Below are positions 20,081-24,337 of a DNA stretch of 64,000 nt, one piece after another. The position numbers and the translations under genes are program-made. Source of the DNA: Dictyostelium discoideum. Lineage: Eukaryota. The notes beneath the pieces are model-generated. The model did not search any database and was not told the DNA's origin. It was given only the letters and a program-made list of their open reading frames with translations. The stretch spans positions 1,376,001 through 1,440,000 of the forward strand of contig CM000151.3 of the NCBI GenBank assembly GCA_000004695.1. Direction: 5' to 3'. Within the stretch, counting starts at the first letter, position 1; every line of letters starts with the position of its first letter.

Positions 20081-23000
20081 TTAAAAAGTTTTAGTTAAAT
20101 AATTTGTAATTTCTTCAAAAGATGGTCTTTTATTTGGATCTTCAGACCAACACCAAACTACTAATTTCTTCCAATTTGGATCACAATTATCTGGTAATTC
20201 TGGTCTTAAACCTTTTGAAGCAACTAAAATGCCAGCATTCATTGGAGGAATACCTTGATATGGTTCTTCACCAGTTAATAGCTCATATAGGACGATTGCA
20301 TAAGAATAAACATCAGCTTTTTGATTATAAGATTCATGACGAAGAATCTCTGGAGCAGTCCAAGCCACTGTACCAATTGTAGTCATAGTTTGAGTGAATG
20401 AAGTTTCTCTGGCGATACCTAAATCTGCGATTTTAATATTGAAATGTTTATCCATTAAAAGGTTACTTGATTTTAAATCTCTATGAATTATATTTCTCGT
20501 ATGTAAATGTTGCATACCACGTGCAATATCGAAAGCTATAGCCAATATCAATGTACTATCCAATTTAATTGATTGTTGTTGTTCTGATGGTTTTGAATGG
20601 ATTAATTCAAATAGATTACCACTTGGTAAGAATTCCATAACTATACACATTGGATTCAACGAATAACCATAACATGTCACCAAATTTGGATGTTGTAAAC
20701 TACCCAATAGTTCAACCTCTGCTTTAAACTCTTGAATCATTTCTTCTCTTGCTTTATCTTTATTTGAATTTAATTTCTTTACTGCAACATCTTTACCTTT
20801 CCAATTACCCTTTAAAACTTTACTAAAATGACCTTTACCAATCTCTTTATCAATTTTAATATCTGAATAATTTATCATTGTAACTGATGATGATATTGGT
20901 AGTGTTACTGTATTTACAAACCAAATATCATCTAATATTGATAAATTATTATTATTATTATTATTATTATTATTATTATTATTATTATTATTATTATTAT
21001 TATTATTATTATTATTATTATTATTATTATTATTATTATTATTATTATTATTATTATTATTATTAGTAGTGTTGGTTGTATTTGTAATGATAGTATTACT
21101 ATTACCACTACTACTACTACTATTATTACCACCACTACTACTATTATTATTAATATTATTATTATTTCCTTTACCACCTAATATAAATAATTTACTACCA
21201 TTTTTAATTAAACCAAAATTATAACGTGGTGGAGAGAATTGAACACCAGAAACTTTTGACCATTGCATACGATATGATAATACCCAACAATCTCTTAATG
21301 CAATTGGATTACCATTTGAATCATCTTTTTTACCACCAACCATAACGATATTTCTACCGACACGTGTTGCTGAATGAAATGATCTTTCTGATGGTATCTC
21401 TGAAACTTGATGAAAACTTGCAACTTGCCACTGAAAACTTGAATCAATTTCATTTAATAATAAAATATGGGTATCATTTAATTCGACCAATCCTTTATTA
21501 TTATTATTATTATTATTATTATTATTATTATTATTATTATTATTATTATTATTATTATTATTATTATTATTATTATTATTATTTATACCTTTACCACCGA
21601 AAATTATTAATTTCTCCCCTAAAATTGTACTTGTATGACCAAATCTTTCAGATGGTGTTTGACCTCCTTTAATGTTTGTAACGGTTGACCAACACATTGT
21701 TTCTGGCTCTAATATATAGAGATCATTTAAACATTGTTCACCATCGTAGCCACCAAACAATAAGAATCTATTACCATAACGAGTGAAAGTATGTCCATAT
21801 CTTGGTGAAGGTATACAACCACCACTAATTCTAGGTGATGACCAATGTACTGTACTATCATCCATAATGGTTAAAACATACAATTTATTTGATAATTTGC
21901 CAGCTACATAACCACCAAACAAGTAAAACTTATTACCAATTCTACAATAGTCGTGATTATAAATTGACTCTGGGCCAACTTTACCACCGGTTACTTTTGG
22001 TGATATGAATAGGTTTCTCTCTACATCGATGAATTGAACTAAATTCTCACCAGTTATACCTTCACCACCAATCAATACCAATGATGAACCATAAACAGTG
22101 ACAGAGTGTGAAGATCTTGGTGGTTGTAAAGTACATTGTTGAGCAATGGCCCAATCCAACTTCTCTTCAACACCAGTTGATAATTTTATAAACTTACTAA
22201 CAGTACTTCTTACTTTATTACTGTTCTCCAATTGTGATAATTCTTGTTTAGTTTCATCATTAGTTGGTACAATTGTTGATGTAGTTGTTGATATTCCATT
22301 ATTTTGTAAAATTTGATCATCTTGTTCAAAATCATTACCAACAACACTATTATTATCATTAATATCTGAGAAACTATCATTATTATTTTCATTATCATTT
22401 TCTAAATTACCAACAACACTATTTGTACCTGGTGTTTGATAAACTGGTGTTGCTAATTGACTAACTGGTGCTGATACTGATTGATTATTATTATTATTAT
22501 TTGTATTGCTATTATTATTATTATTATTATTATTTGAATGAGCTAAGAAATTTAAATATTGATTATAATATTCAGGTGGTAAACTTTTTCTATTATTTAT
22601 AGAACTACTACCAAATGTTCTAGTTCTATAAGTTGATGATTGGTCTATATCAGTGTATGGATGAGTAGGGAATGCTGAATAAAATATATTATGTGATGAA
22701 CCACCAGTTGGTAATGGTGGTGGTTGAATACTATCTGAACCTGATGATGATCTATTATGAGTTTTACCAACACTAGTATTATTTAATATTAAATTATTTA
22801 ATAAACTATTTGTACTATTCTCTTTTGATAGTATATTATTATTATTACCATTATTATTGCCATTATTATTGCCATTATTATTATTATTATTATTATTATT
22901 ATTATTATTATTATTATTATTATTATTATTATTATTATTATTATTATTATTATTATTATTATTATTATTATTATTATTATTAATACTATTATTGACATTA

Positions 23001-24337
23001 TTATTATTGTTGGTGGATGTTGTTGTTGCTGTTGTTGCTGTTGTTATATTTGAAGGTTGATTTACATTTGAAGGATTCGTTATTGGTGTATTTGATGTTG
23101 TATTTACATTATTTAAATTGGTTGAGCTTATATTTACATGTTCATAAAAATTAATTTTAGATTTAACATCTTTTTGGTAAGTTTCTGGACTTGAGATTTC
23201 GTTATTATTATTACCTTTTGTTGATGCACTATCATTATTAGTTGTGGTAGTATTATTATTATTATTATTATTATTACTACTACTATCGCTATCATTTATT
23301 GAAGATTTACTTAACTTATTTATGATTTGATATCTATTATCAAAATATATTACAAAGTATATGACAAATATAGAGATGACATAAACTGATGTCTCTTTAA
23401 GTACAAAGTTTGAAAGTATATATATTAACAACACAATGAAAATTGATTCCACAAAATAGATTGGACTAAATCCAAACATTACTGATAAACTTGGTTTACT
23501 TATAAATTCAATAGTTGGATTAATTGTTGAGTTTTTAATCTTTTTAAATTTACTTGGCGTTGAATTTGTTGTTGATGTACTTGTATTTGTTGTTGCTGTT
23601 GTGGTGGGTGTTTGTTGTGTATTCAATATTGGCGTTGGCTTTGTTATTGCTTTAGTTGTATTTAATATTAATTTATTTGGTGATATTTGTTGGGTAGTAA
23701 TTGGTGAAGGAGCTCTTCCATCTTTTATATTATTATTATTATTACCACTACTGCTACTGCTACTACTACTACTACTATTGTTATTATCATTACAAATTTT
23801 ATCTTCTTTAATATTATCTTTAATTGTATCTTTGATTGATTCCTTTTCCAATTTGAAACTATCTCCTCTATCCAAATTACTATTGAAATTTTTATAATAA
23901 TTATTTTCTTCTGATAATTTTGATTCCATATAGTTATTAAAATCAGCTGCTGAACTACTATTATTTGAAAAGCATGACTGAGATGATAAATTTAATTGTG
24001 AATTTTGTTGTTGTTGTTGTTGGTGTTGTGACGGTGGTGAGGATGATGAGCCACTACTATTGCTACTAGTTTCCATTGTTGTTGACTTTAAAATTGTGCT
24101 AACTTTATCAGGTATTTTATGTTGTTGATGTGTATTGTGGTGGCTATGGTGTGTGTTATTATGGCTATTATTCCTTGACTGTGAAGGTGAAGAAGGAAAT
24201 TTTTTCTTTAAAATTGGTGAATGAGGTTGAGATAAATCTTCAGAAAATGAATGACTTCTATTCCTTAACCCACCTTGTTTTGAAACATTTGTAAGATGAG
24301 TATTATTAATACTACTATTACTATTTGTAGTTGCCAC
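20081..24337 (-). CDS. Kelch-repeat and tyrosine-kinase-like (TKL) protein kinase, 1418 aa, with poly-N/S low-complexity regions and a pair of predicted TM helices; single exon
   Basis: The C-terminal kinase domain includes GKGHFSKVLKGNWKGKDVAVKKL...HRDLKSSNLLMDKHFNIKIADLGIAR...GTVAWTAPEIL...DVYSYAIVLYELLTG. Kelch blades lie upstream (YGHTFTRYGNRFLLFGGYDGEQCLNDLYILE, RFGHTSTILGEKLIIFGGKG, GNKFYLFGGY). A hydrophobic stretch is FGFSPIYFVESIFIVLLIYILSNFVLKETSVYVISIFVIYFVIYF. Poly-N tracts are encoded by (AAT)n. Confidence 0.85.
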   Translation of the reverse strand: MATTNSNSSINNTHLTNVSKQGGLRNRSHSFSEDLSQPHSPILKKKFPSSPSQSRNNSHNNTHHSHHNTHQQHKIPDKVSTILKSTTMETSSNSSGSSSSPPSQHQQQQQQNSQLNLSSQSCFSNNSSSAADFNNYMESKLSEENNYYKNFNSNLDRGDSFKLEKESIKDTIKDNIKEDKICNDNNNSSSSSSSSSSGNNNNNIKDGRAPSPITTQQISPNKLILNTTKAITKPTPILNTQQTPTTTATTNTSTSTTNSTPSKFKKIKNSTINPTIEFISKPSLSVMFGFSPIYFVESIFIVLLIYILSNFVLKETSVYVISIFVIYFVIYFDNRYQIINKLSKSSINDSDSSSNNNNNNNNTTTTNNDSASTKGNNNNEISSPETYQKDVKSKINFYEHVNISSTNLNNVNTTSNTPITNPSNVNQPSNITTATTATTTSTNNNNNVNNSINNNNNNNNNNNNNNNNNNNNNNNNNNNNNNNNNNNNGNNNGNNNGNNNNILSKENSTNSLLNNLILNNTSVGKTHNRSSSGSDSIQPPPLPTGGSSHNIFYSAFPTHPYTDIDQSSTYRTRTFGSSSINNRKSLPPEYYNQYLNFLAHSNNNNNNNNSNTNNNNNNQSVSAPVSQLATPVYQTPGTNSVVGNLENDNENNNDSFSDINDNNSVVGNDFEQDDQILQNNGISTTTSTIVPTNDETKQELSQLENSNKVRSTVSKFIKLSTGVEEKLDWAIAQQCTLQPPRSSHSVTVYGSSLVLIGGEGITGENLVQFIDVERNLFISPKVTGGKVGPESIYNHDYCRIGNKFYLFGGYVAGKLSNKLYVLTIMDDSTVHWSSPRISGGCIPSPRYGHTFTRYGNRFLLFGGYDGEQCLNDLYILEPETMCWSTVTNIKGGQTPSERFGHTSTILGEKLIIFGGKGINNNNNNNNNNNNNNNNNNNNNNNNNNNNNKGLVELNDTHILLLNEIDSSFQWQVASFHQVSEIPSERSFHSATRVGRNIVMVGGKKDDSNGNPIALRDCWVLSYRMQWSKVSGVQFSPPRYNFGLIKNGSKLFILGGKGNNNNINNNSSSGGNNSSSSSGNSNTIITNTTNTTNNNNNNNNNNNNNNNNNNNNNNNNNNNNNNNNNNNNNNNNLSILDDIWFVNTVTLPISSSVTMINYSDIKIDKEIGKGHFSKVLKGNWKGKDVAVKKLNSNKDKAREEMIQEFKAEVELLGSLQHPNLVTCYGYSLNPMCIVMEFLPSGNLFELIHSKPSEQQQSIKLDSTLILAIAFDIARGMQHLHTRNIIHRDLKSSNLLMDKHFNIKIADLGIARETSFTQTMTTIGTVAWTAPEILRHESYNQKADVYSYAIVLYELLTGEEPYQGIPPMNAGILVASKGLRPELPDNCDPNWKKLVVWCWSEDPNKRPSFEEITNYLTKTF
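20946..21064. repeat. (ATT)n/(AAT)n trinucleotide microsatellite (about 40 units) encoding poly-Asn in the kinase gene
   Basis: A perfect ATT repeat. Further tracts of the same kind lie at 21497-21586 and 22876-22982. Confidence 0.95.

Follow-up and report, generated by a model that had tools for sequence, protein, structure and literature searches.

A predicted hairpin-anchored Kelch-kinase of Dictyostelium discoideum and its conserved N-terminus without an ATG

We analysed a stretch of 64,000 nucleotides of the Dictyostelium discoideum genome (assembly GCA_000004695.1, contig CM000151.3, positions 1,376,001 to 1,440,000 of the forward strand; hereafter the window) and focused on one protein kinase gene on its minus strand, which is publicly annotated yet uncharacterised. 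Its product is probably a cytosolic kinase of the tyrosine kinase-like (TKL) group, resembling mitogen-activated protein kinase kinase kinases (MAP3Ks), that carries a six-bladed Kelch propeller and is tethered to a membrane by a predicted helical hairpin. The gene consists of an uninterrupted open reading frame (ORF) at 20081..24337 (-), with 1418 codons and a stop, and these coordinates are exactly those of a preliminary description made from the DNA letters before our analysis. The fraction of G and C (GC) within the ORF is ~0.2-0.36, compared to 0.10-0.13 in both flanks. From the N- to the C-terminus, the protein shows a low-complexity region, two adjacent hydrophobic helices, a long poly-N linker, the six-bladed Kelch propeller and the TKL kinase. 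The preliminary description had given this domain order, together with intact TKL motifs and a helix pair of membrane-grade hydrophobicity, and Pfam matches, motif positions and hydropathy confirmed all three in the ORF. The features are as follows; AF2 stands for AlphaFold2 and aa for amino acid positions.

20081..24337 (-): whole ORF, defined by the ORF list and the GC contrast with the flanks
23489..24337 (-): N-terminal S/N/T/Q-rich region, aa 1-283, with the conserved islands ATT, GLRNRSHS, SP.KKKF and HK.PDK
23399..23488 (-): hydrophobic helix 1, aa 284-313, core IFIVLLIYILSNFVL, from hydropathy scales, AF2 and the seven-gene alignment
23390-23398 (-): K314-T316 of the inter-helix loop KETS (4 residues), from the translation
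23339..23389 (-): hydrophobic helix 2, aa 317-333, VYVISIFVIYFVIYF, from hydropathy scales, AF2 and the alignment in register
23141..23164 (-): linear motif KSKINFYE, aa 392-399, with K, I, F and Y columns invariant in the alignment
22544..22591 (-): motif RKSLPPEYYNQYLNFL, aa 583-598, containing a PPxY-type sequence, from the orthologue alignment
22151..22258 (-): pre-propeller helix, aa 694-729, ...KV+ST...EEKLDW, from the alignment and an AF2 helix at model residues 442-466
20903..22153 (-): six-bladed Kelch beta-propeller, aa 729-1145, from Pfam and AF2
20096..20860 (-): TKL protein kinase domain, aa 1160-1414, from Pfam, catalytic motifs and relatives found in the PDB and with Foldseek

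Poly-N tracts occupy aa 453-488, 919-947 and 1092-1131, the latter two inside the fourth and sixth Kelch repeats.

The kinase domain matches PK_Tyr_Ser-Thr (PF07714) over aa 1160-1414 with E = 2.9e-64 and 217 bits against a cut-off of 23.1, and PF00069 with 198 bits. We located the Gly-loop GKGHFSKV at 1167, VAVK at 1184-1187, HRDLKSSN at 1285-1292, DLG at 1305 and APE at 1328, and the catalytic columns are invariant or nearly so across the alignment. At 1305 the Asp of the DFG motif is kept and the Phe is replaced by Leu; all five dictyostelid orthologues aligned have this DLG, whereas the BTB-containing relatives described below retain DFG. In a sequence search of the PDB with the kinase domain, the nearest entries were Arabidopsis CTR1 (E = 6.7e-56), MLK1, Dictyostelium Roco4, TAK1, MLK4, B-Raf, DLK and ZAK, with E ~1e-47 for the MAP3Ks MLK1 and TAK1, and CTR1 was also the best kinase fold by Foldseek (template modelling score 0.89). 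Because its neighbours by sequence (CTR1, MLK1, TAK1 and others) and by fold (CTR1) are of this kind, the domain is assigned by sequence to the MAP3K-like branch (MLK/Raf-like) of the TKL group, with kinase activity as a prediction. CTR1 itself acts at a membrane, that of the endoplasmic reticulum (ER), and lacks a built-in anchor; binding to the ethylene receptor recruits it there. We know of no kinase of the CTR1, MLK or TAK1 type with a Kelch propeller.

Several Kelch families of Pfam match over ~aa 727-915 and beyond. Six repeats can be read by eye in the translation, and the AF2 strand groups over aa 729-1142 fit six blades (pLDDT, the predicted local distance difference test, 85-95 in blades 1-4), in line with the upper figure of the five to six blades given in the preliminary description. 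The closest solved Kelch domains are those of LZTR1, KLHDC3 and KLHDC2. No solved chain found with Foldseek spans both Kelch and kinase, and Pfam gave no BTB or BACK match in the protein, which places it outside the BTB-Kelch (KLHL-type) family. LZTR1, KLHDC2 and KLHDC3 are E3-ligase adaptors, and the Kelch-phosphatase BSU1 is a precedent for joining Kelch to a signalling enzyme; unlike the protein studied here, none of these four is known to be joined with a kinase or a membrane hairpin.

The hydrophobic pair is conserved across the Eumycetozoa. We aligned seven genes from six species, namely D. discoideum, D. purpureum, T. lacteum, A. subglobosum (two genes), Synstelium polycarpum and Clastostelium recurvatum, and observed that both segments align in register while their sequences diverge. 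The preliminary description had named orthologues without the hydrophobic segment as a finding that would speak against it, and every orthologue found retains the pair. The protein of the protosteloid C. recurvatum is transcript-derived, and its hairpin, Kelch and kinase layout was found by reading the sequence. Since this species shares the hairpin module, the module is older than the Dictyostelia. The hairpin-Kelch-kinase is conserved from protosteloid amoebae to every dictyostelid species sampled.

The pair was scored on the Kyte-Doolittle, Wimley-White octanol and Hessa 2005 insertion scales. Its two segments are the sole windows of the protein that pass the cut-offs on the three scales, as they are in the D. 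purpureum, T. lacteum, A. subglobosum and Synstelium proteins. The 19-residue Kyte-Doolittle maxima are 2.33 for helix 1 and 1.90 for helix 2, both exceeding the classical threshold of 1.6, and helix 1 has a Wimley-White sum of ~-11 kcal/mol and a Hessa sum of ~0. Across five orthologues the Kyte-Doolittle maxima range from 1.9 to 2.6 and the Wimley-White sums from ~-5 to -13 kcal/mol. These scores lie within the range of a neighbouring ORF with multiple transmembrane segments that served as a positive control. For the D. discoideum protein and the T. lacteum orthologue alike, AF2 predicts a helix-loop-helix with pLDDT 70-81, bordered by disorder on either side. In the former the helices cover aa 292-311 (pLDDT ~70) and aa 318-332, and in both models helix 1 has 20 residues and the loop 6-7. 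The gap between the 15-residue hydrophobic cores measures 2-6 residues in five genes and 14-15 in two, with 0-1 K/R per gap, and 15-residue flanks hold 1-4 K/R on the C-terminal side and 0-3 on the N-terminal side. On the same scales, the S/N/T-rich aa 1-283 contain no hydrophobic window or signal segment, and the hydropathy scan found no membrane segment between Kelch and kinase.

These features are most readily read as a hairpin anchor. With ~283 hydrophilic residues and no signal peptide, the N-terminus would remain cytosolic; helix 1 would enter the bilayer and helix 2 would come back, so that linker, Kelch and kinase are all cytosolic (N-in/C-in). The propeller would then bring a putative substrate or regulator to the surface of the presumed target membrane, and the low-complexity linker, with its three short motifs, would give reach and probably contains docking or sorting sites. 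A hairpin anchor had been offered in the preliminary description as an alternative, and it becomes the reading we favour on account of the short loop, the missing signal segment and the location of Kelch and kinase on the same side. Several observations weigh against it. The positive-inside pattern is clear in T. lacteum and Clastostelium but weak in the A. subglobosum and Synstelium proteins. The hydrophobic cores span only 15-20 residues, Hessa-type insertion sums of ~0 to +1.9 kcal/mol are borderline, and a Glu lies inside helix 1 of both Dictyostelium species. In addition, the Dictyostelium kinome includes 17 kinases with strongly predicted transmembrane domains, and these seem, from the text of that paper, to be accounted for by other kinases (PMC1420674).

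The main rival, which we regard as unlikely, is a monotopic hairpin or wedge in which the short helices dip into one leaflet in the manner of reticulon-, caveolin- or lipid-droplet-type anchors, and which would send the kinase to ER tubules or lipid droplets. Hydrophobic cores of 15-17 residues, the very short loop, the borderline Hessa sums and a Pro located at the turn or close to it (T. lacteum, A. subglobosum, Synstelium and Clastostelium) would all suit such an anchor. However, the 20-residue helix 1 of the two AF2 models suffices for a thin ER or Golgi bilayer, and Wimley-White sums of -9 to -13 kcal/mol are typical for spanning helices. Sequence alone cannot tell a spanning from a monotopic hairpin, and the signalling outcome is equal, with both termini cytosolic.

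It is considerably less probable that the stretch has no contact with a membrane at all and reflects AT-rich codon bias or the buried interior of a small, soluble helical fold. AT-rich genomes favour the residues I, F, Y, L and V, and a Kyte-Doolittle value of 1.6 is reached somewhere in 11% of composition-preserving shuffles of the protein. The observed 2.33, in contrast, was reached in any window by only 15 of 5000 shuffles (0.3%), a single-window result that is indicative and not decisive. The paired segments are also kept in position in A. subglobosum and Clastostelium, whose sequences lack long poly-N tracts, and AF2 places the pair in isolation amid disordered flanks. Conservation in position, more than the shuffle statistics, is the decisive argument for taking the pair as a genuine feature, probably of membrane type. 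A retained AT-rich intron was also considered as the source of the hydrophobic stretch and rejected: the DNA is exon-like with mixed codons, no plausible splice sites were seen by eye, and the protein is conserved.

A receptor-like kinase with a sensing Kelch domain outside and the kinase inside, the headline of the preliminary description, has next to no probability: it draws on the co-occurrence of predicted transmembrane helices with a protein-binding domain and a kinase and on nothing further, whereas the protein has no signal peptide and the known receptor TKLs of Dictyostelium combine a signal peptide, an ectodomain and a single transmembrane helix (PMC1420674, PMC2064856). Because Kelch and kinase both follow the pair and are contiguous, uninterrupted by any membrane segment, no ligand-binding ectodomain is possible, and the sole part that could be exoplasmic is the loop, only a few residues long.

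The linker between hairpin and propeller comprises ~390 low-complexity residues with three conserved islands, KSKINFYE, RKSLPPEYYNQYLNFL and the helix ending in EEKLDW. In the seven-gene alignment, the K..I.FY motif is invariant and lies C-terminal to the hydrophobic pair. The second island includes LPPEYY, of PPxY type, which appears as PPEY, PPDY or PPGY in every dictyostelid orthologue and is not clear in Clastostelium. PPxY-type sequences can be read as WW-domain ligands, and this putative site could dock a WW-domain protein or a Nedd4-type ligase on a membrane-anchored protein. A segment comparable to the aa 694-729 helix was recognised by eye ahead of the propeller in the BTB-Kelch-kinase relatives.

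To place the architecture among known proteins, we compared it with large sequence collections. In an exhaustive profile search of 1.84 billion representatives, the dictyostelid cluster alone matched the whole architecture in one stretch. A homologue search with the full ORF was dominated by low-complexity words and returned only D. purpureum and generic kinases, and a search with the alignment of the N-terminal module gave no matches. Proteins of other amoebae and metagenomes (Echinamoeba exundans P0125; metagenomic P0126-P0129 and P0184) have a BTB domain followed by the cassette of pre-Kelch helix, Kelch and kinase. These BTB-Kelch-kinases are 36-43% identical over ~95% of this module; the BTB domain forms the N-terminus where the D. 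discoideum protein has its hydrophobic hairpin, and no membrane segment occurs in them. The hairpin is also absent from P0213, a dictyostelid-like paralogue with the Kelch-kinase cassette. The BTB and hairpin N-termini would fit a swap of the targeting module, and the simplest history would be a fixed Kelch-kinase cassette with exchangeable N-terminal targeting modules. On this history, the family would offer a clear example of targeting-module exchange.

The second A. subglobosum copy lies at L004 3211-6810 (contig DF837578.2) and is annotated as two genes, of 539 aa and 554 aa, with the division immediately ahead of the propeller. Its 5' ORF, 3211-4953, holds the conserved N-terminus, the hairpin and the linker motifs, and stops shortly ahead of the start of the Kelch-kinase ORF at 5001.

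Membrane-tethered TKLs carry much of the receptor and tyrosine-kinase work of Dictyostelium, and the preliminary description had considered such kinases of signalling interest in an organism that lacks classical receptor tyrosine kinases. The premise stands in so far as Dictyostelium uses TKLs in place of true receptor tyrosine kinases; it is tempered by the nine TKLs with a classic receptor layout described in the kinome paper (PMC1420674), and by VSK3, whose lumenal N-terminus and cytosolic kinase were demonstrated experimentally (PMC2064856). The text of the kinome paper does not discuss the Kelch kinase and names Kelch only in a supplementary figure legend (PMC1420674), and a 2023 survey of transmembrane kinases makes no mention of Dictyostelium (PMC10463195). 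Like the GDT/DRK TKLs (VSK3/rk3), the protein would be a membrane-attached TKL with a cytosolic kinase, although the attachment is here predicted (PMC1420674, PMC2064856). In the GDT/DRK kinases, a signal peptide and a lumenal or extracellular domain (gdt, drk or TIG) are combined with a single transmembrane helix. The hairpin kinase, in contrast, lacks a signal peptide, has a hairpin of two helices with only a few residues between them, and carries its Kelch domain on the same side as the kinase. Among membrane-tethered TKLs it would thus represent a different design, in which a cytosolic MAP3K-like kinase anchors itself and brings its own Kelch module for recruitment.

We further observed that the ORF does not open with an ATG. 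Codon 1 is GTG at 24335..24337 (-), in the context aag GTG G with 'ag' at 24338-24339, and the first ATG is codon 88. The 87 codons before this ATG are coding, as indicated by their GC contrast (0.31 versus 0.096 immediately upstream), by the low probability that they are free of stops by chance (p = 0.0012) and by protein-level conservation with D. purpureum. In that comparison 81 codons aligned and 40 residues were identical, 14 of the 40 with a different codon, and the GLRNRSHS block alone differs by five synonymous changes. In T. lacteum and both A. subglobosum genes, the annotated Met lies downstream of the same conserved blocks.

Conservation opens with x-Ala-Thr-Thr/Ile in all five of these genes (four species). 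The first codon is GTG in D. discoideum, CTG in D. purpureum, ACG in T. lacteum and GTG in both A. subglobosum genes, and the candidate start positions are 24335-24337 (-) in the window, 4846 in L001, 9782 in L002, 9845 in L003 and 3262 in L004. The next codon is GCN (Ala, +4 G) in 5/5; the base at -1 is A except in D. discoideum, where it is G, while -2 is A throughout and -3 is A or C. Differences at third positions (GCA/GCT, ACT/ACC/ACA) resemble codon evolution. There is no in-frame ATG between the upstream stop and the conserved first codon, the stop lying 2-13 codons upstream in the four genes in which it was located, and none in the following 41-98 codons across the five genes. Conserved, obligatory near-cognate initiation across the Dictyostelia, at GUG, CUG or ACG, is a possibility that we advance tentatively; non-AUG initiation of this kind appears to be the most economical reading of the start-region comparison. 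Initiation at GUG would yield the N-terminal peptide (M)ATTNSNSSINNTHLTNVSK.

A comparative signature of conserved non-AUG N-terminal extensions was used in humans by Ivanov et al. 2011 (PMC3105428). As in those cases, conservation extends upstream of the first AUG, there is no in-frame AUG, and a near-cognate codon (CUG, GUG or ACG) is conserved. Unlike in those cases, no AUG-started form of the hairpin-Kelch kinase could hold the conserved N-terminus in any of the species. We found no literature report of non-AUG initiation in Dictyostelia. If true, the kinase, itself of unusual hairpin-Kelch-MAP3K architecture, would provide a social amoeba case of an obligatory non-AUG start with deep conservation, and a tractable example for studies of start-codon selection in an extremely AT-rich genome.

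Alternatively, a small, non-homologous upstream exon in each species may supply the start instead. An AG stands directly before the GTG in D. discoideum and overlaps its G in the A. subglobosum genes. In D. purpureum and T. lacteum, however, no AG occurs between the upstream in-frame stop and the conserved codon, and a shared splice acceptor is therefore unlikely. Two forms of such an exon were considered and set aside. For a mini first exon, the sole in-phase ATG with a GT, judged by eye, is ATG AAA|GTGCCG at ~24724, which has an atypical donor; a split 'A|TG', in which the A would close exon 1, is compatible with the two A. subglobosum genes only.

The missing ATG also bears on the public annotation. 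Because the conserved start has none, gene finders use an internal Met in T. lacteum and A. subglobosum and reach the ATG of a neighbouring gene in D. purpureum and in a second D. discoideum-like strain, and the public gene models at the locus are probably wrong at the 5' end. Exact look-ups of the 1331-aa protein that begins at Met88 and of the 778-aa PX protein gave no match in the protein collection used. In D. purpureum, DICPUDRAFT_94884 (1857 aa) carries PH and PX domains and a CUE-like match below threshold ahead of the hairpin-Kelch-kinase, and by tblastn its N-terminus maps to window 25342..27990. In the second strain (GCA_054883475.1), whose sequence JBTAPE010000001.1 (L005) is 99.4% identical to window 19905-42901 with 32 gap openings over 23 kb, the NCBI model is one gene of 2186 aa that runs from the PH/PX ATG through the kinase stop.

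These models raise the alternative, improbable in our view, that the kinase ORF forms the final exon of a larger PH-CUE-like-PX-hairpin-Kelch-kinase gene, with an intron of ~1 kb in front of it. Besides the two annotations, it can call on the absence of an ATG at the start of the kinase ORF with an AG just before it, on the PH/PX gene being the upstream neighbour in both Dictyostelium species, and on a frame-preserving GT..AG model of four exons and 2174 aa that can be built in the window. However, splicing at 25342 truncates the PX domain at profile position 67 of 84, as in the fused D. purpureum protein, whereas profile positions 2-83 of 84 are matched when the domain is read to its own stop at 25273. 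D. purpureum keeps the read-through tail with its stop (IVNVFLNSEVNSTIFQHFINKTK and stop versus IVNAFLNSDLNSSIIQHYMNKASNK and stop), and there the counterpart of the donor is GTTAAT. Furthermore, the upstream neighbours in T. lacteum and A. subglobosum are unrelated, yet the conserved N-terminus without ATG is common to both. Since PX is complete only at its own conserved stop, the D. purpureum donor reads GTTAAT and the neighbours elsewhere are unrelated, the fused annotations are probably an artefact. The 2174-aa model had initially been preferred and was dropped on the completeness of PX, its conserved tail and stop, and the finding that neither T. lacteum nor A. subglobosum has a PH/PX gene as neighbour.

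The upstream gene itself occupies window 25273-27990 (-) and has at least three exons, a PH domain that falls below the Pfam cut-off in the window, and a C-terminal PX domain; the CUE-like stretch is a sub-threshold match in the D. purpureum orthologue only. In its exon 1-exon 2 region, window 27629-27888 (-), a canonical GTAAGT donor at 27850-27855 does not match the phase of the acceptor. A long poly-A run lies at this acceptor, and the window and L005 (around 7700) differ by indels next to it.

Three other genes in the window were noted. The ORF that served as the hydropathy control lies convergent to the kinase gene at 19401-19892 (+) and encodes 163 aa with several strong hydrophobic segments and no Pfam match; it starts with TTG in the ORF list and is probably one exon of a larger gene with multiple transmembrane segments. 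At 29963-32869 (+), divergent from the PH/PX gene, an intron-less gene encodes a RecQ-family helicase of 968 aa (DEAD, Helicase_C and RecQ_Zn_bind), and the protein is identical in the second strain. Finally, an F-box and Kelch protein of 447 aa is encoded at ~39750-41220 (+) (L005 19844-21316); its Kelch part gives a weak tblastn match (27% identity) to the propeller of the kinase and represents an unrelated second Kelch gene.

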